A stretch of 64,000 nucleotides of DNA from an uncultured Solobacterium sp. Lineage in GTDB: Bacteria > Bacillota_I > Bacilli_A > Erysipelotrichales > Erysipelotrichaceae. The notes beneath the pieces were generated by a model. That model had not been told where the DNA came from. It was given only the letters and a program-made list of their open reading frames with translations, and made no database searches. The stretch lies in NCBI GenBank assembly GCA_938036765.1, contig CALHWI010000119.1, positions 5,964-69,963 on the forward strand, in the 5' to 3' direction. This document shows positions 1-16,108 of the stretch, in pieces (positions within the stretch are counted from its first letter, which is position 1; every line of letters starts with the position of its first letter). The translations under genes were made by a program, and so were the position numbers.

Positions 1-215
1 CCAATTCTTCCTATAACGGATGATTTTTCTGTAAGACTTGCATTTTCAATCTTAACTTTTGAATCTTTGTTCGTATATTCATGCCATGGAATGTCCATGT
101 GGTTGTTCATAAGATCATCTCCTATATCATTTATATATAATACACATAGTATAAATATATATTCGATATTTAATTCCATGAATAGTATAGTCAAGAAAAA
201 AAAGAAGTCAATTTC

Positions 216-578
216 TTAATCAACTTCTTTATGAATCCATGTCATTAATACTTTAACGATATAGGCCTTTTGTCTAGGGCCTAGTGGCTGATTGAGTTTG
301 ATCTTATGCCACTTATATAGGCATTGTCTACAACAACAGCCAGTAGCATGTTGGGCAATGAATACAGGATGTCCTTTGAATGGTGTTTGTTTACCATCGT
401 TGGGTATATAGGCTGGAGCTAATCGTTTTTCAACAAAGTCGATGGCATGTTTTTCAATGGTATCCATTCCTTTGGCTTGAATATACTTTTTATCTTTTTG
501 TTTCAGATGAAAACTGCTCCTAAATTTGGAGTGGGATAGACGATTAAAAAGTTGTTCAAACCATTCGGATTCTGTCAT
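216..578 (-). CDS. Conserved Cys-rich hypothetical protein (DUF4186-like)
   Basis: 120-aa ORF with a conserved-looking HATGCCCRQC cysteine cluster. Family assignment is from memory only. Confidence 0.45.
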   Translation of the reverse strand: MTESEWFEQLFNRLSHSKFRSSFHLKQKDKKYIQAKGMDTIEKHAIDFVEKRLAPAYIPNDGKQTPFKGHPVFIAQHATGCCCRQCLYKWHKIKLNQPLGPRQKAYIVKVLMTWIHKEVD

Positions 579-599
579 AAATGCTCCTTATATATAATA

Positions 600-624
600 A
601 AAAAACCAGCATTGCTGGTTTTAT
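600..624 (-). terminator. Rho-independent terminator downstream of tRNA-Asn copy 1
   Basis: On the minus strand, CCAGCAATGCTGG hairpin followed by a T-run immediately 3' of the tRNA. Confidence 0.6.
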
Positions 625-631
625 AATCAAG

Positions 632-707
632 TGGCGCCTGAAACAAGACTCGAACTTGTGACCTGCCGGTTAACAGCCGGATGCTCTACCGACTGAGCTA
701 TTCAGGC
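632..707 (-). tRNA. tRNA-Asn (anticodon GUU), CCA encoded
   Basis: Reverse complement reads GCCTGAATAGCTCAGTCGGTAGAGC...CTGTTAA...GGTTCGAGTCTTGTTTCAGGCGCCA. Cloverleaf is satisfied with a 7-bp acceptor stem, GTT in the anticodon loop and a TpsiC arm GTTCGAGTC. Confidence 0.85.
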
Positions 708-806
708 ATTTGTTTTTCACTTGACTGCTTAAATATAATACCAAAAGATTTAGAGTTGTGCAAGCACTTTTTTTTATTTTTTTAGATAAATTTTAATTCA
801 GAAATA

Positions 807-831
807 AAAAAACCGGCAATGCTGGTTTCAT
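807..831 (-). terminator. Rho-independent terminator downstream of tRNA-Asn copy 2
   Basis: CCAGCATTGCCGG hairpin plus T-run on the minus strand. Confidence 0.55.
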
Positions 832-838
832 AATCAAG

Positions 839-914
839 TGGCGCCTGAAACAAGACTCGAACTTGTGACCTGCCGGTTAACAGCCGGATGCTCTACCAAC
901 TGAGCTATTCAGGC
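839..914 (-). tRNA. tRNA-Asn (GUU), second tandem copy
   Basis: Near-identical to copy 1 with one D-loop substitution. The 207-bp unit is duplicated, each copy with its own TTGCA(C/T)-17-TATTAT promoter on the minus strand. Confidence 0.85.
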
Positions 915-1020
915 ATTTGTGTTTCACTTGATGCCTGTATATAATATCAAAAGATGTTGTATTATGCAAGTACTTTTTGTAAAATTATAATATATTATTA
1001 TCTAAACGGAGGAATGGATT

Positions 1021-1896
1021 ATGTTAGATGCGATTGTAATGGATATGGATGGAACTTTATTGGATCCAAATAATAAGATTTTGCCAGAAACAAAAGAGGC
1101 TTTAATTGCTTGTCAAAAGCAGGGGACAAAGCTTGTGCTTGCTAGCGGTAGAAGTTATACAAGATTGCTTCCTTATGCTAAAGAATTAGAGATGGATGTA
1201 TATGGTGGCTATTTGTTAGAGGTAGATGGTATTGCGTATTATGATGTAAAGAAAGATGAGCGTCATGTTTTAAAACAGATGTATAAGGAAGATGTTGAGC
1301 CTGTATATGCGTATTTGATGCATAAAAATTGTGAAACGATGGCTGTATTTAGTGATGGTCTATTTGATTATATTCCTGATCATATTATGGAAAAGAAAAA
1401 AGAATTGAGAAATTCAAAGGATTATCCAGAAGATTTTCCTTGGACGGGTGGTCCTTGGTCTTGGCTTGCGGATATGCGTGATGGTTATCCTAAGATTACG
1501 TATATTAAGGATCTTAGTGAAATCAAGTATCCTGTAAATAAGATTCAAACTATTGAGGATGAAGAGGTTACTACCCAATTGGCTTTGGATATTCAAAATG
1601 AATTTAAAGATCAATATGAAGTGTTCCGTACTTGTCCTAGAGAACTTGAAGTATTGCCTAAAGGATATAGTAAAGGAGCTACTCTAGTTCGTATGATGGA
1701 TATGTTTGGTTGGGACAAGGATAAAGTCTTCACATTTGGTGATGGTGAAAATGATGTGAGTATGTTTGGTGTTGTAACGCATAGTTTTGCGATGGGTCAG
1801 GCTTTGGATTATGTAAAAGAAAAAGCAGCTCATGTGACCAAGTCCAATGTGGAACAGGGAATTGTAGCTGCTTTAAAGGATTTTAATATTTTGTGA
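1021..1896 (+). CDS. HAD-superfamily hydrolase, Cof-type (HAD-IIB)
   Basis: MDMDGTLLD motif I. SD GGAGG 8 nt upstream of the ATG. 291 aa. Confidence 0.85.
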   Translation: MLDAIVMDMDGTLLDPNNKILPETKEALIACQKQGTKLVLASGRSYTRLLPYAKELEMDVYGGYLLEVDGIAYYDVKKDERHVLKQMYKEDVEPVYAYLMHKNCETMAVFSDGLFDYIPDHIMEKKKELRNSKDYPEDFPWTGGPWSWLADMRDGYPKITYIKDLSEIKYPVNKIQTIEDEEVTTQLALDIQNEFKDQYEVFRTCPRELEVLPKGYSKGATLVRMMDMFGWDKDKVFTFGDGENDVSMFGVVTHSFAMGQALDYVKEKAAHVTKSNVEQGIVAALKDFNIL

Positions 1897-2920
1897 TATA
1901 GCTAACAACAAGCTTCATTGTGCTTTCTACACCATCATAGTGTGTTCTTTCCATTCCGTGGCTTGCATGAACACCTGGGCCAATCAAGGCTCCTTTAATG
2001 TCATTACCACCGCGTAATGCGGCACTGACATCTGAACCATATTGTGGGTAGATATCAACGGCATAATTAAGCTTGTTTTCTTTTGATAGTTCGACTAGAC
2101 GAGTAATCATTTCGTAGTCGTATGGTCCGCTTGAATCTTTTGCACAGATTGAAACATCTTGTTCAGTACAAGCTAAATCTGTACCAATACATCCCATATC
2201 AACGGCTAACAATTCTTCGACTTCTTCTGGTAAACAACTTGCTCCGTGTCCAACTTCTTCATATGTACTGAACATAATGACCAAGTCTCTTTGAGGTGTA
2301 ATGTTGTTGTCTTTTAAGTATTTTAGTACGCCCATTAAAGCTGTAGCTGAAATCTTATCGTCTAAGAATCTAGATTTAATAAATCCACTTTCTGTGATTT
2401 GTGTTTTTGTATCAATACAAATGAAGTCTCCGTTGCAGATACCTAATTTTTCAACATCTACTTTTGAGTGAACAACTTCGTCGATACGAACTTCCATTGT
2501 ATCTTCTTTTCTTTCTACTGTTGAAGCATCTGGATATACGTGAACGCTTGGTGAACAAGAAAGAATTGTTCCTGTATATACCTTTCCATCGCGAGTATAG
2601 ATCTTACAATATTCTCCGTCTAATGTTGGTAAGCAGGGCCCTCCAACTTTAGTAATGGCAAGTTTTCCATTGTCTTTAATGGAACGAACCATAAGTCCTA
2701 ATGTATCTAGGTGAGCACTCAATCCTAGTGTGTGTTCAGAATCTTTTCCGTCTACATAGATCAACAAGTTTCCTTTTTGGTTGCGTCCTGTTGTATAGCC
2801 TAATTTTTTGGCTTCTTCGTCCATGAAATCAATGGCTCTTTTTGTATAGCCTGTTGGTGAATCAATATTCAAAATTTGTTTGGCGATGTCACAGACATAT
2901 TCTTTATCAAATGGTTGCAT
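1883..2920 (-). CDS. M42 family aminopeptidase (FrvX/glutamyl aminopeptidase-like)
   Basis: 345 aa. HLDTLGLMVRSIKDNGKL...GG pattern typical of M42 peptidases. Confidence 0.75.
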   Translation of the reverse strand: MQPFDKEYVCDIAKQILNIDSPTGYTKRAIDFMDEEAKKLGYTTGRNQKGNLLIYVDGKDSEHTLGLSAHLDTLGLMVRSIKDNGKLAITKVGGPCLPTLDGEYCKIYTRDGKVYTGTILSCSPSVHVYPDASTVERKEDTMEVRIDEVVHSKVDVEKLGICNGDFICIDTKTQITESGFIKSRFLDDKISATALMGVLKYLKDNNITPQRDLVIMFSTYEEVGHGASCLPEEVEELLAVDMGCIGTDLACTEQDVSICAKDSSGPYDYEMITRLVELSKENKLNYAVDIYPQYGSDVSAALRGGNDIKGALIGPGVHASHGMERTHYDGVESTMKLVVSYITKY

Positions 2921-3030
2921 ATTTTAAAACTCCTCCTGTATGTATTATACGCTTTTATACAAATTCTAAACAATGTATTAAACTTTTTTTTGAATTTTGT
3001 GCTATTGTACAAGAAAAGGAGGCTAATTGT

Positions 3031-3501
3031 ATGGAATTAAATGTAAGAGAAGAAAAGTTAAAAGGTTTATTTAAACAGTTTCAAGTGGAACATAATGAGA
3101 ATTGTAAGACAGTATTTATTGATAATAATGATGAAAATTTAGAAAACTATTTAAATGAATCGAATATGGTATATTTACATATGGTGGATAAAGAAGTAAG
3201 ACATCTTGATTTGACTAAAGTAAATACAATATTTGTGAATAAAGAATATGCGAGTAAATTAGAAAATGGAATTCAGGATGAACAAAGAATTCTAGAACTA
3301 CTATTAAATAAATATCCCAATCTTAGAGTTGTATTAATTACAGATAAAAAGGGTGCTTATTATAAAGATAAGGACATGATGATTTACCAGAAAGAATTGG
3401 TCTCTAATTTTGATAAAGACTTATTCTTAGTTAAATATATGGCTTCAGAATTAAAGGGGAATTCAGAAATGACATCTCTATATCGAGGTGTAAATCAGTA
3501 A
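3031..3501 (+). CDS. Hypothetical protein (156 aa). True start probably ATG 3031 inside the longer ORF 2842..3501
   Basis: AAAAGGAGG SD upstream of ATG 3031. The upstream part of the ORF overlaps the divergent promoter region of the M42 gene. No recognisable family. Confidence 0.5.
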   Translation: MELNVREEKLKGLFKQFQVEHNENCKTVFIDNNDENLENYLNESNMVYLHMVDKEVRHLDLTKVNTIFVNKEYASKLENGIQDEQRILELLLNKYPNLRVVLITDKKGAYYKDKDMMIYQKELVSNFDKDLFLVKYMASELKGNSEMTSLYRGVNQ

Positions 3502-3707
3502 AGACTACTAGATATGTTAGAGTACCTAAGACAAAAACTTGAATTCGCGTACGTCTTTGGAATTAAAAGACTTTGGAGGTAGATTAATCCATGAAAACCA
3601 CCCTACATATCTAGTAGTCATTTCCATTATAAAGGTCCAATGTGAAAAGATTATTAAAAGTCAAAAGTTTTTCAAAATATTTTAAAATAGATGTGTAAAT
3701 CGGTAAG

Positions 3708-3736
3708 TTGATATTTATCATCTTTCTCGTTATAAT
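3708..3736 (+). promoter_or_regulatory. Consensus sigma-A promoter TTGATA-17-TATAAT
   Basis: TTGATA 3708-3713 and TATAAT 3731-3736 with exact 17-bp spacing. No protein-coding gene downstream on this strand. Confidence 0.6.
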
Positions 3737-3742
3737 ACAAGT

Positions 3743-3830
3743 ACAGAAAAGACTACTAGATATGGTGGTCACTCTGGATTAGGTTATAGCGCTAATCCCG
3801 TTACGAGTGGGTGGTTAGCGCTTTTTGTTT
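3743..3830 (+). ncRNA. Candidate orphan small RNA (~88 nt) with nested hairpins and an intrinsic terminator
   Basis: Predicted TSS about 7 nt after the -10. Transcript contains AAGACUACUAGAUAUG, nested stems CACUC/GAGUG and GGAUUAG/CUAAUCC, and terminator AGCGCUAA..UUAGCGCU followed by UUUUUGUUUUG (3788-3832). It ends about 8 nt from the stop of the convergent 339-aa gene. Confidence 0.45.
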
Positions 3831-3837
3831 TGCCGTT

Positions 3838-4857
3838 TCATTCATGATTGTATTGGTTTGCAGCATTTAAATAGGAGCTTTTAAATTCTGTTGCCAAAAC
3901 CTTTGGACTGATGATTTTTATGTCTTTTGCAAAAATATAGAAAAAGGTTTTTGCCTGGAAATAGGAACAGTCAAACTCTAATAGATATTCATTATTTTCT
4001 AATTGTGTTGTTTTTATTGGCATAGGTTTATTTAAATATCTAATTTTAAATAGTTCATATGCTTTTTGGTTAAATTGAATAATAATATGTTCTTCATTAT
4101 CTCCATATTTGAATTGAACACCATTTTTAATCATTTTATGAAAAGTTTTGAAATCTGTATCAGAAAATGTAATGTCAGATTCACTATTGAAGTGAACAGA
4201 CACTTCAGTAATATTCATTAATTTTCTTGTTGCGATTTCATAACAACCATTTTGATTGTTTCTAACTTTTCCAATCACGTAATTATATATTTTTTCTTTA
4301 TGTTCCATAATTAGGTAAGGCTTCATTTCAAAAATACTATTATCATTTGTTTTAATGGAAATTGATTTTTGTTGATCAATCGCATTTTGTATTTTTGAAT
4401 AGTTTTCTTTAAATAAGTAGATTTCTCTTTTATATATTGGTAATTGAAAAAAAGAATCAATCAACATTCTAATGTATATAGGAAAGCTCAAGTTGAGTGG
4501 AGTAATGAAATTAGATTGGATATTATCTAATAATACGGAGATATCTTTTTGAGGTTTAAATGATATAGTTCTATTTTTCTTTTCACCACTAGACTCTAGA
4601 GAAATATCATAAAACATCGTTTTTAATTTAATCTGTATAGTTTGATCATAAACGGTATCTACTACGGAAATATAATCCTTTATAGGATTTAGTTTTGTGC
4701 ATTCAAAATCAGAATGATAATTTCGAATCAATATATTAATAAATCGATTTATGTTTGGTTTGTTTTTATTGCATATTTGAAATCTGTTCGCATCTTCTAA
4801 AATAGAATTGTATTGAGAATTTGTGAAATATAATCGTATTGGGTCAATAAAATCCAT
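3838..4857 (-). CDS. Hypothetical protein, 339 aa, with WYL-like middle segment and WCX-like C-terminus (putative ligand-sensing regulator)
   Basis: Very AT-rich ORF. KPYLIMEHKEKIYNYVIGKV...CYEIATRKLMNITEV resembles a WYL core. C-terminal DIKIISPKVLATEFKSSYL resembles the xVLeP.eLr tail of WYL/WCX regulators. No clear HTH. Confidence 0.5.
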   Translation of the reverse strand: MDFIDPIRLYFTNSQYNSILEDANRFQICNKNKPNINRFINILIRNYHSDFECTKLNPIKDYISVVDTVYDQTIQIKLKTMFYDISLESSGEKKNRTISFKPQKDISVLLDNIQSNFITPLNLSFPIYIRMLIDSFFQLPIYKREIYLFKENYSKIQNAIDQQKSISIKTNDNSIFEMKPYLIMEHKEKIYNYVIGKVRNNQNGCYEIATRKLMNITEVSVHFNSESDITFSDTDFKTFHKMIKNGVQFKYGDNEEHIIIQFNQKAYELFKIRYLNKPMPIKTTQLENNEYLLEFDCSYFQAKTFFYIFAKDIKIISPKVLATEFKSSYLNAANQYNHE

Positions 4858-5058
4858 GATAATTTCCTCCTTTTTTCAAATAAATTATAACATATACTAA
4901 TTAAAGTAGTACATAAATATATAATATTATTCGTAATATAATGTTATAAGCAATAAATAAGTAGTACATAAAATGAAAAAAGTATCCATATTAAAACTAC
5001 TTTTATTCTGCTATTATTCATGTGTAAACAGGGATGACCTGTAGGAGGAAAAAATAGT

Positions 5059-6048
5059 ATGAATAAAGATCAAAAAAATTATGAATCAAATGTATCTACA
5101 GGATTGAATTCTGTACAAACAATTTATGAAGGAAGTGTGAATGCACGTGTCGTTGAAAGAGCGGGAAATCTAGCTTCTTCACAAAGTAAGGGTATTGCGC
5201 ATGAAATTATGTATGCAGATAAATTAAATGTTACACGTCCAGAACTTGGTGTGACAAAACTATCTACAAAAACCAATGCAGTGCGTGATGATTTAGTGAG
5301 TGTAAAGGATGGTGTAGTCAAGTATCGTGCACAACTTAAGGATACTGTATCTTCTTCTGGAGTGAACAAAACGGTAACTCAGGGAATGAATGGAAAGTAT
5401 CAGGGAACGAATTTTATGGGGACAAAAGAAACCACAGAACTTTACAATGCAGCAACTAAAAATACGGCTGCTCAGAAAACGAGTTCAACAGGAATCTCAT
5501 CAAAGGATACTTCTAGAATTACAGAGTCTTTTTCAGGAAAGATGACAAGCTTAGAAAATATCGCACACAATTCAACTCGAGCAGGATCATTCGGCGCAGT
5601 TGCAAACGTTGCGGTTGGAGCCGTTGAAGATATTGTGAATAGTGAATCTGGCGATGAAATGTTAGCTCATGCAGCAGCAAATGGTGCTAGAGGTTTTGCC
5701 TCAGGCTATGTAGGGTCTGCAGCAGCTACTGTAGCAACTTCAGCAACAGCAGCTGGAATCGCATCTGTACCAGCATTAGCTGCAGCACCATTAGTAGCGG
5801 TAGCAGCACCAGTAGCCGCAGGTATTGTGGCTGCAACTGTTGCAGGAAAGGTTGTTATGGATGCCACAGATGGAGAAGTCAAAGAAGTATTAGAAGATAT
5901 TGGTCGAGGTGTTGGAGACTTTATTTCTGATGCAGCTGACGAAGTCGCTTATAGGGTTGTCGATAGTATTGGTGAAGGACTAGATAGAGTTGGCGACAAG
6001 GTTGATGACTTTATCGACAGTGTCAGTCTATTCTTCAATTTATTCTAG
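5059..6048 (+). CDS. Hypothetical protein, 329 aa: polar S/T/N/K-rich region, ~95-aa Gly/Ala/Val hydrophobic domain, acidic DxIGxG-repeat tail
   Basis: AGGAGG SD 9 nt upstream. Uninterrupted GAVANVAVGAV...AAAPLVAVAAPVAAGIVAATVAGKVV segment suggests glycine-zipper membrane insertion. No signal peptide and no assignable family. Confidence 0.55.
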   Translation: MNKDQKNYESNVSTGLNSVQTIYEGSVNARVVERAGNLASSQSKGIAHEIMYADKLNVTRPELGVTKLSTKTNAVRDDLVSVKDGVVKYRAQLKDTVSSSGVNKTVTQGMNGKYQGTNFMGTKETTELYNAATKNTAAQKTSSTGISSKDTSRITESFSGKMTSLENIAHNSTRAGSFGAVANVAVGAVEDIVNSESGDEMLAHAAANGARGFASGYVGSAAATVATSATAAGIASVPALAAAPLVAVAAPVAAGIVAATVAGKVVMDATDGEVKEVLEDIGRGVGDFISDAADEVAYRVVDSIGEGLDRVGDKVDDFIDSVSLFFNLF

Positions 6049-6199
6049 GGAAAGGAAGGTGAATATCATGGATAATCAAACAGTTGGAGTTGAACATTAG
6101 AGTAATATAAAGCTAATGTTTTAAAATATAACTCAAATTAATGAAAAACGCTTTATATAAAGTGTATGCTACGAGCATACATTTCAATTTTTATATATA

Positions 6200-6242
6200 A
6201 ATTTATAGGAAACGGCTTACATAAGTGATATAATGCATGTAA
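6200..6242 (+). promoter_or_regulatory. cas9 promoter (extended -10 TGATATAAT)
   Basis: TGnTATAAT at 6226-6234, followed by SD GGAGGG 6257-6262. Confidence 0.5.
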
Positions 6243-6269
6243 CATAATTACTTTATGGAGGGTATTGAA

Positions 6270-9200
6270 ATGGATAATAAGTATGTATTAGGCCTGGATA
6301 TTGGAATTACATCAATAGGTTGGTCAATAATTGATGAAGTTAGGGGAAAACTATTGGATATGGGAGTTCATATGTTTGAACAGGCAATCCCTGCACAAGA
6401 AGTTAGATTGAATCGTTCGGCAAGAAGAACATTGAGAAGAAGAAATTGGAGAAAGAAACAATTAAAGAATGCGTTTGTAGAATTTGGATTGATTTCAAAA
6501 GAGGAATTAAATCAAAGAGACTATTTGAGTTATACTGCAAATTCAGATACATTTTCTCGTCCTGAAGAGGATACGGTTTACCATTTAAGATTGAAAGCGT
6601 TGAAGGAACAAATATCTTTAAGAGAGCTTTTGTTGTGTTTGTATAATATTTGCGGTACTCGTGGACATTTCTTAATGGAGAATATTAATTTTACCTCCAG
6701 TGAACCAATTACTTTTGATTTCTTTGTTGAGCAATTTTATGAGTTTACACATGAATATGTGAATTTTGAAGAAGATACAAAAGAATTTGAGCAGACAATA
6801 CTAAAACCTATTTTTGAAAAGGGAAAAGTAAAATCTAATGAATTAAAGTCTTTGTTGAAGGATGAATATACAGTGGAATCTGAGGATAATGATGCATTAT
6901 TAGAAATATTGAAATTGATCTGTGGATTTAAATGTGATTTAAAGAAAATTAGTGAGTCTGTTGTACTCGTTCAAGAGGATAAAACTAAAGAATCTGTAAA
7001 ATTAGATGAATTATTGAAGATGGATAGCTTAAATGAATTTTTGAACAATGCAGTAGAACTTCATGATGTAATTGCGGTTTCTCAGATTTTAAAGGATCAT
7101 AATTATATTTGTGAAGTGGCTGTAGAGAAATTAAATGAAGTTCTAAATGTTCAAAAATTAGAACATTCAGATCCAGATAAATATAAAGAAGAAAAGAACA
7201 ATATTCAGAAAAAAATGAGTAAGGCAGTTGGAGAGCGTTTGCGTGTTGTAAAAAATATGGAGAATAAGTATCCGAATGGCTTGTATGTAAAAGAAGCTAG
7301 TGAAATTTTGCATAAACAACAAGAATTTTATCCTAATTTGATTACGGATAATTTCATTGAAGCATGTATTTCTACAATTAAAGCACGTATTCCTTACTAT
7401 ATTGGACCATTGTCTTCACAAGCTAAGAATAGTTGGATTGATCGTAAAGATGGTACATTTAAGTATGGATATGACTATTGTAAGGATGCTTTAGTAAATG
7501 AAGAAGAGAGTATTCAAAATTGGAAGTTGAATATGATTTCACATTGTACGTATTTACCCGAAGAATATGCACTTCCAAAAGGATCATTTATTGCAGAGAC
7601 ATTTAGCTTATTAAATGAATTGAATATTCTTACCGCAATTGATAAGAATGAAAATCGATATTATTTAACTCGTGAAGATAAATTAAAAGTATTTGATGAA
7701 TTATTCTTGAAGCGTACAGATTATGTTTCGCATAAAGAAATTGCAGAATTATTAAACTTAAAATCTTTTGGTCCTAAAGACTCTCGTAAAGAAGGTAAGT
7801 TTAAAAATAGATATACTTTGTACCAAAATATAATTTCTGTTTTCCCTCAATTTGAATTGCATTCTATTCTTGATTTATTTAATGAATATGAGAAAGAAAA
7901 AGTAGATAAGATTGAAGATATTATTTTGAATTTAAACTTATTTGATGAAGAACAATCAAAAATTAATTATTTCACTAAGAAGTTGAATTTAGATGAAAAA
8001 GATGCGAAGAAGTTAGCAAGATGTAAATCAAATGGATTTTATGCTTTCTCTAAACGATTTATTATGGAAACAAAAATGAATGTTGATGGAGAAACATTAC
8101 TTGAGGAAATGTTAAGGGACAATTCAGAAAATCAAAAGAATGAACAGATGACTTTGATTACTGAAGCAACGGACTTGGATGGAAATAGAATTAATTTTGA
8201 GTCTAACAAGTATATGACTTTACTAAAGAACACTAACGAGTTGTCTATCGATTTATTGATACAAGATGGTAAACCATTTATTCCAATTGCTAGACCAGTT
8301 ATTAGAGCTTTGAATGAATGTTTTAAACTATATGAAGAAGTTATCAGAACATATGGAGTTCCTGATCGTGTTGTTATTGAAACAGCAAGAGACTTAAAAG
8401 ATAGTTCTCAAGATGGAGATGTACCAGCTAAACATTTTGATCAGATGAAAAAGTTGTATGATTACTTAAATAATCAAATGAAAGAGCAGAAGAAAAAGGC
8501 CAAACTTTCAAAACAATATATGGAAGATTGGGATGTTATTGAGCCTTATTTAGAAAAGAATAAGCGTAAGGTTGAACTATATATACGTCAAAATGGCCGT
8601 GATATGGTAACAGGAGATACAATTGATATTCAACATTTAGAAGATTATGAAATGGATCATATTTTGCCTCGTGGATTTGGAGATAATTCCATGGATAACT
8701 TGATGTTGATTAAAAAAGAAATCAATGGAAAAAAAGCAGACAGACTTCCATTAGAATATATTGAATCGGAAACAGTGGAGAATGAAAACGGAAAACGTAT
8801 CTTATCTAGTGATTTCAAACGTAGATGTTACGAATTGAATGAAATGAAGTTGATTTCAGATAAGAAATTAAAACGTTTATTATTAGCATCCACAGATGAA
8901 GCAATGGGATTTATTAATCGTAATCTAGTAGATACTCGTTATATTATTCGTGAACTAATGGCTATTTTAAGAGCTTATAACACAGTTAATAATTATGATA
9001 CTCATATTGTTTCATTGCGTTCTTCATTTACAACGGTGTATAGAAATGCATTTAATATGAAGAAAAATCGTGATACTGGTGATCAACACCATGCTCATGA
9101 TGCTTCAATTGTTGCCATTGCAGATATGGTTTTATCGACATATTTTCCAAATTATGATGAACGTGGAAATAATAAGTATTATCAAGAATTCTTGAAGAGA

Positions 9201-10322
9201 ATGATGGAATCACAAGGACCAGATAGTGATAAATCGGAAAATCAAAAATTGTATGGATTCATAAAATATGCATATTTTAAGAGATTTGGTAATTATCCAA
9301 ATGATAATGATTCATTAATTTCTCAAATAAGAGCTACAGTACCTTTATATTCTATAAAAGCAGAGAAAAACTATAAAGGTGCATTCTTTGATGCGACTAT
9401 TTATCCGCAAATGGATAAGAAGAAAAACATACCTAGAGAAAAAGGTGTATTAGGTCTTTTAGGTGTAAACAATGATAAACGTATCTATAGCTCAATAAAT
9501 TGTGTTGCAGTAGATTTCTATAAATATACAGATAAGAAGGGAAAGAAGGTCCATGTTGGAATTCATATTCCAAAAGTCATCGTAAATAACAATGGTGAAA
9601 TCAATAAAGAGCAATATGTTAAGTTAATTAGAGATTACTATAAAGTACCTGAATTATTAGATGAAAATGGGAATGTGAAGGAATGTTATTTCCGTATGCG
9701 TGTATTTAAAAATGATTTGATTTATGATACAAATAACTACACAATTCAAAAGTTTAATATAGGTTCTATAGTGAATAAAAAATTAGAAATGAAGCATTTG
9801 TATGTATTTAGTTATGATGAAATCTATAAACAAGTTAATTTCTATAAGAAAGAGTTAGCTGCGCAATTTGATTTTAAAATGGCAAAAATCAATCCGGAAG
9901 GAAAGAAAAAATTCTCGGATTACAAAATTACTGAAATCATTAGTTATTGTGTAGATAACTTAATGGATATTCATGATTTGAATCGTTATAAGGGAACAAT
10001 TGAGAAACTATTAAAAGAAAAGACAGGCTATCAGGAATTTTTAGAAACCATGGCTTATTTAGATTTGATTGTGAATCGAAATTGTACTCCACCTACCATT
10101 GTAGGACAATACATGCCTGTCGCAAGCACAATTGATGATAAATCGGATGTTGAAAATAAAATACAATACATCAAAATCAAATCAAGCATTCTAGGTATTC
10201 GTTATATTTATAATGAAAATGGTAAGTTATTAATATCAGGTCCTAGAAAGGCGCCTGGAAAGTATTCTAAGATTAAAAAGGAAAAGTTCTCTTGGAAAAT
10301 TTGTAGCGACGTGCTACAATGA
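6270..10322 (+). CDS. cas9: Cas9, type II-A CRISPR endonuclease (about 1350 aa)
   Basis: N-terminal RuvC-I MDNKYVLGLDIGITSIGWSII. HNH motif DMDHILPRGFGDNSMDNLMLI. RuvC-III DQHHAHDA. Followed by cas1-cas2-csn2 and the array. Start taken as ATG 6270 (SD spacing 7) rather than 6255. Confidence 0.95.
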   Translation: MDNKYVLGLDIGITSIGWSIIDEVRGKLLDMGVHMFEQAIPAQEVRLNRSARRTLRRRNWRKKQLKNAFVEFGLISKEELNQRDYLSYTANSDTFSRPEEDTVYHLRLKALKEQISLRELLLCLYNICGTRGHFLMENINFTSSEPITFDFFVEQFYEFTHEYVNFEEDTKEFEQTILKPIFEKGKVKSNELKSLLKDEYTVESEDNDALLEILKLICGFKCDLKKISESVVLVQEDKTKESVKLDELLKMDSLNEFLNNAVELHDVIAVSQILKDHNYICEVAVEKLNEVLNVQKLEHSDPDKYKEEKNNIQKKMSKAVGERLRVVKNMENKYPNGLYVKEASEILHKQQEFYPNLITDNFIEACISTIKARIPYYIGPLSSQAKNSWIDRKDGTFKYGYDYCKDALVNEEESIQNWKLNMISHCTYLPEEYALPKGSFIAETFSLLNELNILTAIDKNENRYYLTREDKLKVFDELFLKRTDYVSHKEIAELLNLKSFGPKDSRKEGKFKNRYTLYQNIISVFPQFELHSILDLFNEYEKEKVDKIEDIILNLNLFDEEQSKINYFTKKLNLDEKDAKKLARCKSNGFYAFSKRFIMETKMNVDGETLLEEMLRDNSENQKNEQMTLITEATDLDGNRINFESNKYMTLLKNTNELSIDLLIQDGKPFIPIARPVIRALNECFKLYEEVIRTYGVPDRVVIETARDLKDSSQDGDVPAKHFDQMKKLYDYLNNQMKEQKKKAKLSKQYMEDWDVIEPYLEKNKRKVELYIRQNGRDMVTGDTIDIQHLEDYEMDHILPRGFGDNSMDNLMLIKKEINGKKADRLPLEYIESETVENENGKRILSSDFKRRCYELNEMKLISDKKLKRLLLASTDEAMGFINRNLVDTRYIIRELMAILRAYNTVNNYDTHIVSLRSSFTTVYRNAFNMKKNRDTGDQHHAHDASIVAIADMVLSTYFPNYDERGNNKYYQEFLKRMMESQGPDSDKSENQKLYGFIKYAYFKRFGNYPNDNDSLISQIRATVPLYSIKAEKNYKGAFFDATIYPQMDKKKNIPREKGVLGLLGVNNDKRIYSSINCVAVDFYKYTDKKGKKVHVGIHIPKVIVNNNGEINKEQYVKLIRDYYKVPELLDENGNVKECYFRMRVFKNDLIYDTNNYTIQKFNIGSIVNKKLEMKHLYVFSYDEIYKQVNFYKKELAAQFDFKMAKINPEGKKKFSDYKITEIISYCVDNLMDIHDLNRYKGTIEKLLKEKTGYQEFLETMAYLDLIVNRNCTPPTIVGQYMPVASTIDDKSDVENKIQYIKIKSSILGIRYIYNENGKLLISGPRKAPGKYSKIKKEKFSWKICSDVLQ
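10292..10320 (+). promoter_or_regulatory. tracrRNA promoter inside the cas9 3' end (TTGGAA-17-TACAAT)
   Basis: TTGGAA 10292-10297 and TACAAT 10315-10320, 17-bp spacing. The -10 overlaps the cas9 stop codon. Confidence 0.5.
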
Positions 10323-10325
10323 GTG

Positions 10326-10416
10326 TGTCAAATAATACAAATGAATTTAGTCTGGAAGAATAAGATTTAAATTCGAAAACTATTAGAGATAGCTAATTGT
10401 GGCTATCTCATTTTTT
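10326..10416 (+). ncRNA. tracrRNA: tracrRNA (anti-repeat plus terminator hairpin)
   Basis: 10328-10360 TCAAATAATACAAATGAATTTAGTCTGGAAGAA is an imperfect reverse complement of the CRISPR repeat, about 26 of 33 nt with the typical internal bulge. It ends with GAGATAGC..GCTATCTC hairpin and T6 (10386-10416). Same orientation as the cas operon, between cas9 and cas1. Confidence 0.8.
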
Positions 10417-10433
10417 ATTATAGTTTTATTAAT

Positions 10434-11336
10434 ATGGGCTGGAAAACAGTAGTAATTGGAACTGAGTGTACAGTGTCATTAACATTAAATCGAATGAAAA
10501 TTACAATAGGAAATGAATATCAGAATATACCATTATGCGATTTGGATACAGTGATTTTTTCACACAATCGAATTACTATGACAATTCCAATGTTGTCAAA
10601 ATTGGTAGAGAATAATATTAATGTAATAATTTGTGATTCAAAGAATGATCCAATTGGTATTTTTCAACCATTCAACAATCATTCTTTGGTATTTAAGCAA
10701 TTGAATAAACAGATTAATTGGAAAATAACTCGGAAAAAGAAATTATGGAAATTTATAATAGAACAAAAAATACAATCTGAAATAGATGTTTTGGATTTGA
10801 TTTATGAGGATTGTGATGAATTAGAAACTTTAATTGGCTATAAGAATTCAGTTTATAATGATGATCAAACAAATCGTGAAGCAGTGAGTGCAAAGTGTTA
10901 TTTTGGAAAGATGTTTGGGACAAAGTTTTATAGAGATGATAAGAAGGATGTTAGAAATTTTGCACTAAATTATGGATATAAGATTTTAGCTAGTTATATT
11001 TCAAAATGTATAACAGCTAGAGGATTATTAACTCAACTAGGAATTCATCATATTGGTGAATCGAATGCGTTTAATTTAACATACGATTTTATAGAACCAT
11101 TAAGAGTGATAGTAGATGTATGGGTTGAAGAAAATATTAAAGATAGTTTCAATGTGGCTCAAAAACAAGAGTTGATTGGTCTATTAGAAACGAAGGTTTA
11201 TATAGATAAGAAATGGATGCGTCTAAAAGATGCAATTGAAGATTTAATTGATTCTTATATTGGTTTCTTGAATGAAAAAACAGATGATATTTTGAAAATT
11301 GATTTTTCAAAAGGAATTCGTTATGGAGGGGAGTAG
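10434..11336 (+). CDS. cas1: Cas1 integrase (type II)
   Basis: MGWKTVVIGTECTVSL... N-terminus characteristic of type II Cas1. 300 aa. Correct position in the operon. Confidence 0.9.
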   Translation: MGWKTVVIGTECTVSLTLNRMKITIGNEYQNIPLCDLDTVIFSHNRITMTIPMLSKLVENNINVIICDSKNDPIGIFQPFNNHSLVFKQLNKQINWKITRKKKLWKFIIEQKIQSEIDVLDLIYEDCDELETLIGYKNSVYNDDQTNREAVSAKCYFGKMFGTKFYRDDKKDVRNFALNYGYKILASYISKCITARGLLTQLGIHHIGESNAFNLTYDFIEPLRVIVDVWVEENIKDSFNVAQKQELIGLLETKVYIDKKWMRLKDAIEDLIDSYIGFLNEKTDDILKIDFSKGIRYGGE

Positions 11337-11679
11337 TAGATTTGTGAGATTAGTATTATTCTTTGATTTACCTCAAGAAACGAAAACAGATCAAAGACAT
11401 TACAGACAATTTGTAAAATATTTAAAAACTGAAGGATTTATACGAATCCAATATTCAGTTTATGCAAAATTATGTATAAATAATGACTCAGCTAAAACGA
11501 TTCAAAAAAGACTTAAAAACAATGTTCCTGATAATGGGGATATACGATATTTAATAATAACTGAGAGGCAATATCAAAACATTGTGAATATGAATAGTAA
11601 TTATACTTTACAAGAAAACATTACAACAACAGATCGTACTTTAATTATAGGAGGACTAAATAGTGAAAATAATACATGA
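11323..11679 (+). CDS. cas2: Cas2
   Basis: RFVRLVLFFDLP...IQYSVYAK Cas2 pattern. Likely start ATG 11323 overlapping the cas1 stop (longer ORF from 11299). Confidence 0.85.
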   Translation: MEGSSRFVRLVLFFDLPQETKTDQRHYRQFVKYLKTEGFIRIQYSVYAKLCINNDSAKTIQKRLKNNVPDNGDIRYLIITERQYQNIVNMNSNYTLQENITTTDRTLIIGGLNSENNT

Positions 11680-12538
11680 GAAATCTGTCTACTTGATTCC
11701 GGAAGATAATAATATAGTAGTACTAGCAGGTGCTAAACAAAAAGATATAATAGATTGTTTTATAAATCAATTCGTTAAAAAGAAAAGAAATTATTGTAAA
11801 GTATTAGATTCTGAAAATCAGTCAATTAAACCAACTGAGCTTAATTTTATTTATTACCCATATGGTAGTGATATTAATTCTAATTTTGAATTTGGAACAA
11901 AATCTATATTCAATATTGAAACAACTAATCTTATTCAAGAAAATGAAAATGATTTTAAATCACTTGAATTTATTAGAGAAGGACTCAGAAACTTAACAAC
12001 TGATCATGGCATGTATAAACTGAGAGAGATATTAACACGAAATATAGAATGTAATATTAATTTTGAAATGTCGAACTTTGATGTTTCTAAGTTTTTATCG
12101 ATGTTAGACATAAGCCTAGATGATGTTTCAAATGGTGAACGATATGTTATGGTTTATAATCTTTTGTTGTTCATTAATAGAAATCAATTTAACGTTATAT
12201 ACATTGATTTTCCAATTACACAAACTGTATTAAAATGGTTAAAATCATTTGATCAAGATAATATTTTGTTTCTTTTAAATAATGATTATATAGTTTGTGA
12301 TTCTATTAAAGAACTAGAAAAATTATCGATGCTGATTGTTTCTGATAAAGATTATATTGAAAAATATGAATATGATTTAAACCAATTTAATAACATTTCC
12401 TATATACAAAACCCTTATACTATGCTTCATAAGCAACAACAAACAGAAAAAAACATTCGATTAATGGAACAATTTGAAGATAAAAATACAACTTTTTATC
12501 TAACTTTTAATGATACTTATACTCAAGATATACTGTAA
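11663..12538 (+). CDS. csn2: Csn2 (type II-A signature gene), 291 aa, GTG start
   Basis: Position between cas2 and the array defines subtype II-A. AGGAGG SD 9 nt upstream of the GTG. Weak direct sequence recognition. Confidence 0.7.
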   Translation: MKIIHEKSVYLIPEDNNIVVLAGAKQKDIIDCFINQFVKKKRNYCKVLDSENQSIKPTELNFIYYPYGSDINSNFEFGTKSIFNIETTNLIQENENDFKSLEFIREGLRNLTTDHGMYKLREILTRNIECNINFEMSNFDVSKFLSMLDISLDDVSNGERYVMVYNLLLFINRNQFNVIYIDFPITQTVLKWLKSFDQDNILFLLNNDYIVCDSIKELEKLSMLIVSDKDYIEKYEYDLNQFNNISYIQNPYTMLHKQQQTEKNIRLMEQFEDKNTTFYLTFNDTYTQDIL

Positions 12539-12571
12539 ATAAAGCATAAATATGCTATAATAAGGCTGACA
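12539..12571 (+). promoter_or_regulatory. CRISPR leader (33 bp) with extended -10 TGCTATAAT promoter
   Basis: TGnTATAAT at 12553-12561. Predicted pre-crRNA TSS a few nt before repeat 1. Confidence 0.5.
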
Positions 12572-14511
12572 GTTCTTGAGGACTAAGTTTATTTGTATTA
12601 TTTGAACTGTTAAATGCAGGAAAGTATTCAAAACGTAGTTCTTGAGGACTAAGTTTATTTGTATTATTTGAACCTATCCCACATGTCCTGACAGAGAATA
12701 AGCAGTTCTTGAGGACTAAGTTTATTTGTATTATTTGAACACCCACTTCAAAGTGTCATATGTTTTATTGTTCTTGAGGACTAAGTTTATTTGTATTATT
12801 TGAACTCTTTTACGCTGTGTAACTCGTCCATAATAGTTCTTGAGGACTAAGTTTATTTGTATTATTTGAACTTGGAATTGCAAGAGCATTTAACATGCCT
12901 AGTTCTTGAGGACTAAGTTTATTTGTATTATTTGAACCCAAAAGACTTATAATAAATCATATCAAATGTTCTTGAGGACTAAGTTTATTTGTATTATTTG
13001 AACCTGATTTCCATATGCTTGTTCACGGGCATGTTCTTGAGGACTAAGTTTATTTGTATTATTTGAACTTGATATTGGACTGTTTCATATCCGAAAATGT
13101 TCTTGAGGACTAAGTTTATTTGTATTATTTGAACACATGACACGTATTCCACTGGCACGAACGCGTTCTTGAGGACTAAGTTTATTTGTATTATTTGAAC
13201 TTCCATACAGCATTAGCACTAGGAGTAGCTAGTTCTTGAGGACTAAGTTTATTTGTATTATTTGAACCTGTGATAAAAAATAAACAAGGAGGATATAGTT
13301 CTTGAGGACTAAGTTTATTTGTATTATTTGAACCTGCACAGGTAAATTATTCTGTGCAAAATAGTTCTTGAGGACTAAGTTTATTTGTATTATTTGAACC
13401 GAATCGAATGCATAATCAGATTGTCCGTCGTTCTTGAGGACTAAGTTTATTTGTATTATTTGAACTATTAAGTAATCGTACATGCTTCGGATACGTTCTT
13501 GAGGACTAAGTTTATTTGTATTATTTGAACAGGCAGATCAAGAACAGCAGCCGAACTGGGTTCTTGAGGACTAAGTTTATTTGTATTATTTGAACCTATG
13601 GACCAAAAGGGCCTTGAACAGGCCTGTTCTTGAGGACTAAGTTTATTTGTATTATTTGAACAACAACAGGCAGACAGTTTGAAGTCGAGGAGTTCTTGAG
13701 GACTAAGTTTATTTGTATTATTTGAACAAAAGAAAGACACAAAAAAAGAAAAGTTGTGTTCTTGAGGACTAAGTTTATTTGTATTATTTGAACAAAAAAG
13801 AAAAACATAGGCTAAATGTACATGTTCTTGAGGACTAAGTTTATTTGTATTATTTGAACAGAAAAAAAGAAAGATCTACAAATTACGAGTTCTTGAGGAC
13901 TAAGTTTATTTGTATTATTTGAACTTGGAAGAAAAAAGAGACGAGTTAGAAGAGTTCTTGAGGACTAAGTTTATTTGTATTATTTGAACTGTAATATATT
14001 TATGTACAAATCAACACGGTTCTTGAGGACTAAGTTTATTTGTATTATTTGAACAAATTACAGAATATCAGTAGAAAGTTGTGAGTTCTTGAGGACTAAG
14101 TTTATTTGTATTATTTGAACAAATGATAAAAAAGGCGAAGAAGCATACTGTTCTTGAGGACTAAGGTTATTTGTATTATTTGAACTTTTGAGCGTTTCGC
14201 ACGTCTTAAAATATGTTCTTGAGGACTAAGTTTATTTGTATTATTTGAACTGTAATATATTTATGTACAAATCAACACGGTTCTTGAGGACTAAGTTTAT
14301 TTGTATTATTTGAACAAATTACAGAATATCAGTAGAAAGTTGTGAGTTCTTGAGGACTAAGTTTATTTGTATTATTTGAACAAATGATAAAAAAGGCGAA
14401 GAAGCATACTGTTCTTGAGGACTAAGGTTATTTGTATTATTTGAACAATTATCAACAATGTGCCAGTCATCACATGTTCTTGAGGACTAAGTTTATTTGT
14501 ATTATTTGAAT
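12572..14511 (+). CRISPR. CRISPR array: 30 repeats of 36 bp (GTTCTTGAGGACTAAGTTTATTTGTATTATTTGAAC) and 29 spacers of 29-31 bp
   Basis: Period about 66 bp. Repeat starts at 12572, 12638, 12705 ... 14476. Terminal repeat degenerate (ends GAAT). Repeats at 14150 and 14411 carry a T-to-G variant (CTAAGGTTAT). Transcribed on the + strand according to the tracr anti-repeat. Confidence 0.97.
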
Positions 14512-15553
14512 TTATTTGTCTTGTGTTACATTGACTACCACATACTCACATATACCCTCTGTTCTTATTGGAAAACCCCAACCAACAAGGCCTGAGCTAA
14601 TGATTTTTGTGTAATGTTTGAATGTTTCTTTGCCATAGTTACCCGCAAAATCGGGTTGTAGATGGTAAGAATAAGAGAGTGGAAACATTTGTCCGTTATG
14701 AGTATGACCGCTGAGTTGAAGGTCGACATTGTTTTTTAATGTTTTCTTTTGTTTCTTGTGGTTGATGGTCTAGGACGATGTTGTAGGTTTTATTTGTAAG
14801 ATTGTAATCTTTTGTTTTCTTTCGATTTTTGTTTGTGTAATCCTTTCTACCAATAAGAATGATGTTATCTAATTGTACTTCTTGATCATTTAGAATGGTA
14901 ATGTTGTTTTTATTAATTTCTTGATTGAGTTTGGCTCTTGTGAATTTTATCTTGTTTTCATGATTACCATATACATAATAAACAGGGGCTACTTTAGTTA
15001 GTCGTCCAAGTTGTTTAAATAGTACATTCATATCTTCTTCTGATGTGGATTCATCGACAAAGTCTCCTCCTAATAGATAAAAGTCGGGTTTAACTTTCAT
15101 TAATGTATTTGTGATTTCTTTTAATCTTTGAGGATTATTCGCATTTGGATAATGAACATCCGAAATGAAACAGATCTTAGTTGGATTTATGCTTTTTTCT
15201 GTTTTTAGATTATATGTGGTTTGATGGATCGTGTACATATTGACATATCCGAATGTTACGATGGATGTGGATATTATAGCTGATACTATTATGCAGAATA
15301 TTGGTCTTCTTTTTTTGAATAATGCTAGTAATACAAGTAAACAGAATAATGTATGTATTGCCCACATAGCTTGATACATACGCATATTCCAACAGTTTAA
15401 TACTAATGCGATACAGATAGCGTATCGTATTTTTTTGTTTAATTTATCTTTTAATAGATTGTTTAGTATTATGCATAAAATGATTTCTAGAATGAAGATT
15501 CCTATTTGAAGATAGATCATACTATCGCTTCCTTTTTCTTTATTGTATATCAT
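14512..15553 (-). pseudogene. Membrane-anchored metallophosphoesterase (calcineurin-like) with a frameshift at a T6/A6 homopolymer
   Basis: ORF 14696..15553 encodes an N-terminal TM region plus GDFVD and GNHE motifs. The C-terminal segment with SGHTHNGQ lies in another reading frame, offset by one nucleotide, downstream of 14732-14737 and runs to a TAA at 14512-14514, abutting the last CRISPR repeat. A sequencing error cannot be excluded. Confidence 0.6.
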
Positions 15554-15631
15554 GAATAAAGTATATATAATATTTTTTGAGGTTATAAAATTTTAGGGTA
15601 ATTTAAAAATAGGGAAAGGGTATTAGATATA

Positions 15632-16108
15632 ATGAAAAAGGCGATATTAATAGCACTTAAGATATGCTTGGTTATTTTCTTTGGTTTTTTCTTATGCAAT
15701 GAATTAAGTGGACCAAGTATGAGTGATACGGATTTTAGTGTGGTTGAAGAAAATGTAATAAAAACCATGGGTACGTATGAATTAGAAAAACAGGGTGGGC
15801 AGGCAATAAAAAAATATTTGTCTATTAACTCAGCTGATTATGAGAATATTCAATACTATAAATCATCTGATCCGATGAATGTTCGTGAAATTGTGATTGT
15901 GAAATTTAAAGATCCTAATCAAGGAGAAGCGTTTAAAGAGGCTATGCAACAGCGTATTGATACACAAATCAATGCATTTAATGGGTATGGTGTAGAACAG
16001 GTTGCTTTATTAAAAAAGGCTGTTATTTCTTTAGATATGAATTATGCAATCTATGTAACTTGTGAAACGGCAAATGATGTTGTTTCTATATATAAAGAAC
16101 AGTTGTAG
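15632..16108 (+). CDS. Small secreted/lipoprotein-like protein (DUF4358-like), first gene of the acylation cluster
   Basis: Signal-peptide-like N-terminus. 158 aa. Co-oriented immediately upstream of the MBOAT gene. Confidence 0.5.
   Translation: MKKAILIALKICLVIFFGFFLCNELSGPSMSDTDFSVVEENVIKTMGTYELEKQGGQAIKKYLSINSADYENIQYYKSSDPMNVREIVIVKFKDPNQGEAFKEAMQQRIDTQINAFNGYGVEQVALLKKAVISLDMNYAIYVTCETANDVVSIYKEQL

Follow-up and report, generated by a model that had tools for sequence, protein, structure and literature searches.

RspWYL1, a WYL1 protein, consists of two ribbon-helix-helix (RHH) motifs, a Sm-like WYL barrel, and a C-terminal dimerisation domain (PMC6547453), and WYL1 boosts Cas13d (PMC5935466, PMC6547453). 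WYL repressors and activators of defence systems typically combine divergent gene order with repeats near the promoter (PMC9122588, PMC9122601). Type III CRISPR-Cas membrane effectors include Cam1 (transmembrane (TM) segment with a CARF domain), Csx23 (TM segment with a novel domain for cyclic tetra-adenylate, cA4), CorA, Cam2 (TM segment with a REC domain), and Cam3, which has six TM helices and always occurs beside Cami1 in III-B loci (PMC11229360). Csx28 forms a membrane-depolarising pore after Cas13b activation (PMC12669027). The locus compared here with these systems is a divergent gene pair upstream of cas9 in a 64,000-nucleotide stretch of DNA from an uncultured Solobacterium sp. (GenBank assembly GCA_938036765.1, contig CALHWI010000119.1, positions 5,964 to 69,963 of the forward strand), hereafter the window.

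The divergent pair of the original prediction comprises an open reading frame (ORF) of 339 amino acids (aa) on the minus strand and one of 329 aa on the plus strand, separated by a 201-bp spacer, with the cas9 start at 6255. Both ORFs are genuine and intact, and both evolve under purifying selection. As a member of the WYL1 family, the 339-aa protein stands in a new context, and members of the family of the 329-aa protein recur as components or neighbours of type III CRISPR-Cas loci. The pair is best read, with a probability of roughly 55%, as a two-gene module in which a WYL1-type regulator controls a divergent, CRISPR-linked membrane effector via putative AGTAGTAC operator boxes. It makes a good candidate for a defence module or CRISPR helper that is new but not Cas9-specific.

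The divergent gene pair

The pair and its parts are arranged as follows:

3838 to 4857, minus strand: gene of the 339-aa WYL1-type protein (ORF)
4858 to 5058, no strand: putative divergent intergenic control region common to both genes, 201 bp (from the sequence; conserved in Holdemanella biformis L012)
4904 to 4917, plus strand: operator-like box 1, AAGTAGTACATAAA, an exact direct repeat with box 2, 55 bp apart
4959 to 4972, plus strand: operator-like box 2, AAGTAGTACATAAA, an exact direct repeat of box 1
4996 to 5003, plus strand: inverted half-site ACTACTTT, complement of AAAGTAGT
5059 to 6048, plus strand: gene of the 329-aa protein of an unannotated family (ORF)
5059 to 5538, plus strand: conserved N-terminal soluble domain, residues 1-160
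5704 to 5868, plus strand: Ala/Gly/Val-rich hydrophobic segment, residues ~216-270 (Kyte-Doolittle; conserved across the family)
5869 to 6045, plus strand: acidic C-terminal extension, residues 271-329 (16 Asp/Glu, 5 Lys/Arg), with two D-x-IG-x-G-(V/L) motifs

The WYL/WCX assignment originally proposed for the 339-aa protein is borne out and can be sharpened to WYL1-type. The CRISPR-associated WYL model of PADLOC matches residues 149-330 (E=7.2e-9), and a profile built from 67 aligned relatives (Pfam WYL in 29 and WCX in 16 of them) matches WYL1 in the PDB (6oaw_A, E=8.9e-31, profile positions 7-329 against chain residues 26-390). The AlphaFold2 (AF2) model has a mean confidence (pLDDT) of 93.9. 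Its best Foldseek match is again 6OAW (E~1e-16; 6oaw_B with TMq 0.72 over 376 columns at ~18% identity), followed by DriD (1.8e-9), PafBC (4.9e-8), BrxR (1.7e-4), and CapW (4.1e-4), which are matched in their WYL and WCX parts only. Pfam and NCBIfam give no match for the 339-aa protein itself, and Pfam finds no helix-turn-helix (HTH) domain in it. The following parts are distinguished in the AF2 model:

Residues 7-69 and 96-136 (strands at 7-11 and 96-100): two strand-helix-helix units, the RHH motifs
Residues ~166-221: Sm-like WYL beta-barrel
Residues ~258-338: WCX-like C-terminal alpha/beta domain

The two strand-helix-helix units correspond to the two RHH motifs of the published RspWYL1; the presumed DNA-binding part is a double RHH. 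Homology to WYL1 (PDB ID: 6OAW), an accessory protein of type VI-D Cas13d, spans the full length of the protein; the earlier view that neither protein of the pair belongs to an assignable family therefore no longer applies to this one. It does apply to the 329-aa protein, which matches no family in Pfam, NCBIfam, or PADLOC. An exhaustive profile search returns 1263 representative clusters of WYL1-like proteins, mostly full-length at ~330 aa.

Not every Holdemanella strain has an intact WYL1-type gene: some carry it as two separate ORFs or in truncated form, with products of 205-252 aa (L041 8782-9800, L044 8781-9799, proteins P0002-P0005), beside an intact 329-aa gene, which suggests that the regulator is lost now and then.

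Homologues of the 329-aa protein form 75 clusters in a single-sequence search and 389 clusters when the profile of the N-terminal domain (N-domain) is used. All family members have 250-340 aa and are annotated as 'hypothetical', and none contains a domain fusion. Invariant positions of the N-domain are R34, G36, K44, G45, H48, E49, D54, D78, Q92, K94, D95, Y114, G121, T122, E124, T125, I146, S147, and T151. The AF2 model of the protein is confident at residues ~40-155 only, where an alpha-beta-beta-beta-alpha-beta unit is predicted; its first helix bears E49, its second strand has D78 at the start, and its third strand carries Q92-x-K94. In the model this layout resembles that of PD-(D/E)xK nucleases, and the nuclease assignment should be regarded as a lead and not as a finding. 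Pfam searches with 22 N-domains at E<=1 reveal no recurring family. The sole PDB match of the N-domain profile, a subtilisin prosegment (E=0.002, 55 residues), disagrees with the model in secondary structure and was taken as a chance match.

The original prediction placed a ~95-aa uninterrupted Gly/Ala/Val stretch of the glycine-zipper kind after a polar middle part of this protein. Residues 165-270 hold 10 charged residues that break the stretch, and strong hydrophobicity is confined to residues ~225-270 (~45 aa), Kyte-Doolittle 19-residue windows exceeding 1.4 only when centred on residues 234-261. Membership in the glycine-zipper toxins likewise finds no footing, as Pfam gives no match at E<=1 and the segment is mostly Ala and Val, with few Gly in register. 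A membrane-type hydrophobic region is nevertheless retained, as the Kyte-Doolittle peak is predicted to be long enough, at ~45 aa, for a transmembrane helical hairpin. Weak 'MamC' matches (PF26373) to the hydrophobic part of some relatives were set aside as uninformative. The acidic tail with its two repeats was described correctly and is confined to the Holdemanella and L001 lineages.

Small proteins of 77-83 aa that consist of the Gly/Ala hydrophobic module alone are encoded just upstream of some full-length family members (L027 43-294, L028 1091-1342, and, in L094, a 77-aa ORF located 69 bp upstream of the family gene). They hint that the hydrophobic module is an autonomous membrane unit. 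In lineages that lack a WYL1-type neighbour, no universal small upstream partner was found, many of the naive ORFs there being spurious. A phage origin of the family was considered and rejected: PHROGs gave nothing meaningful, and a single IMG/VR viral contig carries the family.

The repeat motifs reported earlier at 4904-5004 are present in the intergenic region, namely AAGTAGTACATAAA at 4904 and at 4959 together with the inverted half-site at 4996. The AAGTAGTACATAAA boxes are retained in H. biformis L012 despite changed surrounding sequence. In the uncultured relative L001, the corresponding region contains AGTAGTAC / AGTAGTAT boxes with the same core motif at a spacing of ~57 bp. Judged from sequence, box 2 probably overlies the -10 region of the 329-aa gene promoter.

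The pair is kept as a divergent unit in three lineages (Holdemanella, L001-L004, and the Syntrophomonas metagenome-assembled genome L018), with a WYL1-type gene divergent from a family member across a 175-250-bp spacer. This conservation extends down to 39% identity: in L001-L004 the two proteins are 39% and 56% identical to those of the window. Both genes are under purifying selection (ratio of nonsynonymous to synonymous substitution rates, dN/dS, 0.02-0.23), whichever CRISPR type adjoins; among strains the ratio is 0.09-0.23 for the 339-aa gene and 0.02-0.14 for the 329-aa gene. Divergent pairing, boxes, and selection together would fit a regulator and its target.

In the proposed mechanism, the 339-aa protein (RHH-RHH-WYL-WCX) would bind the AGTAGTAC boxes of the 201-bp intergenic region as a dimer and thereby control its own gene and the divergent 329-aa gene. 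The WYL/WCX part might release or switch this control upon binding of single-stranded nucleic acid or a related signal made during infection. The 329-aa protein would expose its conserved domain to the cytoplasm, tethered to the membrane by the small-residue-rich helical hairpin. Its most likely role would be that of an ancillary or backup effector that halts the infected cell, either by membrane damage or by cleavage of nucleic acid at the membrane. A more tentative extension, held with clearly less confidence than the module itself, sees the family as a new type III ancillary effector, in which the N-domain would be a new sensor or sensor-nuclease for the messenger made by Cas10 and the hairpin would disrupt the membrane. 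WYL1-type proteins in general would then be RHH transcription factors that gate such effectors, and the module beside Cas9 would still be functional with a Cas10-independent trigger.

CRISPR cassettes and other genomic neighbourhoods

Close homologues carry the names Holdemanella porci and H. biformis. Fifteen Holdemanella-like contigs were compared with the window by blastn. The contig of H. biformis DSM 3989 (L012) is 94% identical to window positions 1-6099 and diverges thereafter; downstream of the pair it encodes Csx20, a Csx1/Csm6 CARF-HEPN protein, Cas10, Csm2-5, and Cas6, which make up a type III-A locus. The contigs differ downstream of the pair as follows (w, window position):

L012, L036, L040, L041, L046: type III-A; homology to the window ends at w6099
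L042: window-type II-A; homology to the contig end, 89% identity
L043: II-A-type locus (Cas9, Cas1, and Csn2 homologues); continuous homology ends at w6280, ~68% DNA identity in short patches only
L035, L037, L038, L039: other type II cassette; homology ends at w6310
L007: no CRISPR; the upstream gene encodes a 479-aa protein that is not WYL1-type; homology ends at w6099
6099, no strand: synteny breakpoint 1 (blastn), in the III-A strains plus L007 and L045
6310, no strand, just inside cas9: synteny breakpoint 2 (blastn), in strains with other type II cassettes

Both breakpoints are sharp and recurrent, and the slot contains III-A and at least three different type II-A cassettes. One of these is fully visible in L038, with a Cas9 of 1122 aa, a repeat that differs from that of the window, and a separate anti-repeat located between the cas9 and cas1 genes of the cassette. 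Throughout, the pair remains syntenic at 94-97% identity. As homology breaks right after the pair, the pair lies outside the exchanged segment and was not acquired with cas9, contrary to the proposal of joint acquisition with the CRISPR locus. Nor is it a II-A accessory, since the same pair precedes III-A in H. biformis and the II-A locus of the window is one of several slot cassettes. The pair is a fixed neighbour of a site where CRISPR cassettes are swapped, and the position of the module at the edge of this slot explains its occurrence beside cas9 in the window. The Holdemanella locus provides a clean natural example of CRISPR-Cas types (III-A, several II-A) swapped at one slot beside a fixed module. 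The block upstream of cas9 is AT-rich as first described: its GC content is 0.23-0.30 (~2750-5000), whereas the left flank has 0.35-0.40 and the 329-aa gene 0.36-0.46.

Beyond Holdemanella, loci matching the family profile were drawn from genomes (23), metagenomes (69), and one viral contig, and were counted after clustering of the family protein. Because Tandem Repeats Finder missed most arrays, these were located with a k-mer spacing detector followed by a repeat-finding check, and several were verified repeat by repeat. Of 41 informative clusters at 90% identity, 16 have an array within 3 kb of the family gene; at 70% identity the count is 10 of 24. For a random gene, such proximity would be expected in well under 1% of cases. 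The fetched locus contains a cas gene or array in 14 of 26 lineages (70% identity), nearly all of III-D or III-A type. Recurrent neighbours are Cas10d, Csx10/Cas5-IIID, two Cas7-IIID proteins, Cas6, Csx1/Csm6, a small CARF protein, and Cas1. The usual position of the family gene is after cas6 or cas1, with its end 58-250 bp short of the first repeat; in L005 the gene is flanked by an array on one side and a degenerate array on the other. Of four more members sampled from the protein database, one (L106) belongs to a III-D locus and has an array 331 bp downstream, two lie in mobile-element or defence islands, and one has no clear setting. The predicted link of the 329-aa protein to CRISPR is therefore strong at the family level (14/26 lineages), with III-D and III-A and not II-A as the partner types. 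The idea of a sensor or regulator paired with a membrane-type effector and linked to CRISPR is likewise favoured by the comparative evidence, which points to type III; its II-A-specific form does not stand. The ancillary effectors known to be activated by signals of type III systems are growing in number and include several membrane proteins. A ~390-cluster family found in type III loci in about half its lineages, and absent from Pfam, NCBIfam, and PADLOC, adds a new candidate with a new cytoplasmic domain.

Several observations weigh against a WYL1-type regulator acting on a CRISPR-linked membrane effector. The WYL1 neighbour is absent in 23 of 26 family lineages. The fetched DNA contains no cas gene or array in 12 of 26 lineages, so that the linkage could reflect clustering in defence islands, and the 64-kb window contains no type III genes. 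Foldseek finds nothing significant for the N-domain model, and no nuclease. Comparison of the N-domain with neighbouring CARF and Csx20 proteins by hhalign yields probabilities below 1%, and the N-domain has no significant match to known cyclic-nucleotide sensors. The AF2 model has low confidence in the hydrophobic segment and is unreliable beyond residue 160. A consensus promoter scan identifies no site in the intergenic region at 4858-5058. Finally, as RspWYL1 is reported to prefer single-stranded RNA (ssRNA) over double-stranded DNA and to act directly on Cas13d (PMC6547453), a transcription-factor role of the WYL1 clade is not established.

The non-CRISPR contexts of the family have the look of defence or mobile DNA. 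Neighbours there include NYN and STAND kinase genes (L011), a helicase gene accompanied by genes of a PLD nuclease and a NUDIX protein (L008), genes of VWA, PP2C, and kinase proteins (L009), McrBC-like genes (L107), as well as integrases and serine and tyrosine recombinases. These contexts speak for the strongest competing explanation, possible and about half as probable as the regulator-effector module: the pair might be a self-contained system for abortive infection or a toxin system, equipped with a regulator of its own, which shares defence islands and mobile-element hotspots with CRISPR-Cas and has no functional coupling to it. The pair or the family gene indeed occurs without CRISPR in L001, L007, L018, L011/17/19, L022/72/104, L105, and L107, next to TIR, NYN, STAND kinase, and McrBC-like genes, serine or tyrosine recombinases, or a dynamin-like GTPase operon. 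It also stays unchanged in Holdemanella as CRISPR types swap, with purifying selection next to II-A. Against a lack of coupling stands the placement of the family gene, in many lineages, tightly inside type III loci, on the same strand, between cas6 or cas1 and the array and 58-250 bp from the first repeat, or between arrays as in L005. The proportion of CRISPR-linked lineages (~40-50%) is moreover far above the usual loose clustering of islands.

Several of the loci carry further genes of note. In L024 (7557-11998), two tandem TIR-domain proteins are encoded divergently from the family member, and downstream lies the gene of a 282-aa protein with a CNYQCKYC motif, which may be radical-SAM/viperin-like, as read from the CxxxCxxC motif only. 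In L022, L072, and L104 (6831-12386), three genes form an operon, whose products are an HTH-dynamin-like GTPase of 762 aa, a 240-aa protein that gives a Ubiq_cyt_C_chap-like match, and the family protein; the operon adjoins a large serine recombinase gene, and L104 is the IMG/VR viral contig. Beside the divergent pair in L001 (6642-13089), lie the genes of a 1802-aa protein, whose C-terminal part is an AAA/STAND-like ATPase region, and of its 359-aa partner, neither with a PADLOC match; they possibly represent another uncharacterised defence system.

An unlikely alternative is that the 339-aa protein is an RNA-binding enhancer that touches the neighbouring Cas effector (Cas9 or Csm) in the manner of RspWYL1, with the 329-aa gene as an unrelated neighbour. 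The full-length homology to WYL1, which binds ssRNA and boosts Cas13d (PMC5935466, PMC6547453), agrees with such a role, as does the position of the 339-aa gene beside cas operons in Holdemanella. The divergent partnership with the 329-aa family nonetheless persists where cas genes are not seen, in L001 and in L018, and operator-like boxes occupy the shared intergenic region. The Cas partner changes type while the 339-aa protein stays 95-99% identical. Clusters of WYL1-like proteins (~1260 representatives) are, in addition, probably far more numerous than Cas13d loci.

Least probable of all is a role of the 329-aa family in array or adaptation biology in place of an effector role, in which the protein might, for example, anchor Cas1-Cas2 or the array at the membrane or might stabilise the CRISPR locus as an addiction toxin. 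The gene often directly follows cas1 (181-496 bp in L023, L078, L085, L092, and L094) or abuts arrays, in L005 lying between an array and a degenerate one. Elsewhere, however, it follows cas6 or stands at the effector end, some occurrences lack both adaptation genes and arrays, and its sequence bears no sign of a DNA-integration function.

Other features of the locus

Downstream of the pair, the window contains the following features, all on the plus strand:

6160 to 6184: terminator-like hairpin and T-run between the 329-aa gene and cas9
6255 to 14511: type II-A locus, context outside the module
6255 to 10322: cas9, 1355-aa Cas9 (Cas9_REC, RuvC, and HNH domains)
10328 to 10360: tracrRNA anti-repeat, between cas9 and cas1
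10434 to 11336: cas1
~11299 to 11679: cas2
11663 to 12538: csn2-like gene
12572 to 14511: CRISPR array, 30 repeats

In the tracrRNA (10328-10415, plus strand), the anti-repeat TCAAATAATACAAATGAATTTAGTCTGGAAGAA precedes a terminator hairpin, GAGATAGC...GCTATCTC, with a T-run. A tracrRNA upstream of the pair, at 3744-3830, was considered on account of a nexus-like CUAAUCCCGUUA and a terminator and was rejected: the anti-repeat of the array lies at 10328-10360, the L038-type cassette has its own, and neither the window repeat nor the L038-type repeat matches 3400-3900.

The segment at 3700-3835 (plus strand) contains a near-consensus promoter, TTGATA-17-TATAAT, at 3708-3736, followed by ~85 nt that end in a GC-rich hairpin and a T-run (~3785-3830). 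The element at ~3743-3830 is a candidate small RNA, predicted from sequence to run towards the 3' end of the WYL1-type gene in convergent orientation. The 5' part of the element, AAAGACTACTAGATATG, is found at three places in 3496-3764, twice direct and once inverted; related boxes lie at 3500-3517 and 3606-3624, and the 350-nt region folds with z=-3.9. The candidate is kept in Holdemanella contigs, is duplicated in L039 and L044, and has no Rfam match.

A 156-aa ORF at 3031-3501 (plus strand), inside the AT-rich block, is 95% conserved in H. biformis and lacks a family match. Further upstream, two near-identical tRNA genes (635-707 and 842-914, minus strand, 71.5 bits each) lie ~200 bp apart, upstream of a HAD hydrolase gene, and the ~170-bp segments around them are likewise duplicated. 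An Rfam scan of 1-16000 detects these two tRNAs and nothing else.

Comparison with known systems

The likeness of the N-domain model to PD-(D/E)xK nucleases does not extend to sequence: the invariant motifs KGxxHE, GTxET, and GISS are atypical of that fold, and no nuclease family is matched significantly by sequence or by Foldseek. Csx28 and Csx27 of type VI-B resemble the 329-aa protein as small membrane-associated CRISPR accessory proteins; PADLOC reveals no sequence relation to them, and both the CRISPR type and the domain content differ. Unnamed membrane families from earlier neighbourhood surveys could not be equated with the 329-aa family.

The membrane effectors of type III systems (Cam1, Csx23, CorA, Cam2, and Cam3) share with the 329-aa family the combination of a cytoplasmic domain and a membrane segment, predicted in the latter case, as well as a location inside type III loci together with Csx1/Csm6 and CARF proteins. 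In contrast to them, the 329-aa protein has no CARF, SAVED, REC, or CorA-type domain by PADLOC, Pfam, NCBIfam, or hhalign. Its topology appears opposite to that of Cam1, Csx23, and Cam2, with the soluble domain N-terminal and the hydrophobic hairpin C-terminal, and it matches neither the Cami1/III-B neighbourhood nor the six TM helices of Cam3.

BrxR, CapW, DriD, and PafBC share with the 339-aa protein the WYL and WCX module (Foldseek E 1e-9 to 1e-3), defence-gene neighbours, and a divergent arrangement with repeats in the putative control region. They contain a winged HTH, whereas the 339-aa protein carries a double RHH, and regulators of the BrxR/CapW type control BREX or CBASS, whereas the 339-aa protein would control the gene of a single membrane-type protein.

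The closest relative is WYL1 (PDB ID: 6OAW), with which the 339-aa protein shares homology over the full length, the two RHH motifs, the Sm-like WYL barrel, the C-terminal dimerisation or WCX-like domain, and the CRISPR-Cas neighbourhood. The 339-aa gene differs in lying beside II-A or III-A and not Cas13d (no Cas13-like gene is seen beside the pair in any locus), in having a divergent gene of a membrane-type protein, and in its operator-like repeats. The divergent partner and the repeats suggest transcriptional control instead of, or besides, direct stimulation of an effector. WYL1 is in use as a Cas13d enhancer; the divergent partner and the boxes offer a role as transcription factor as an alternative. 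If WYL1-type proteins are indeed RHH transcription factors, the view of WYL1 as a dedicated Cas13d enhancer would have to be revised.

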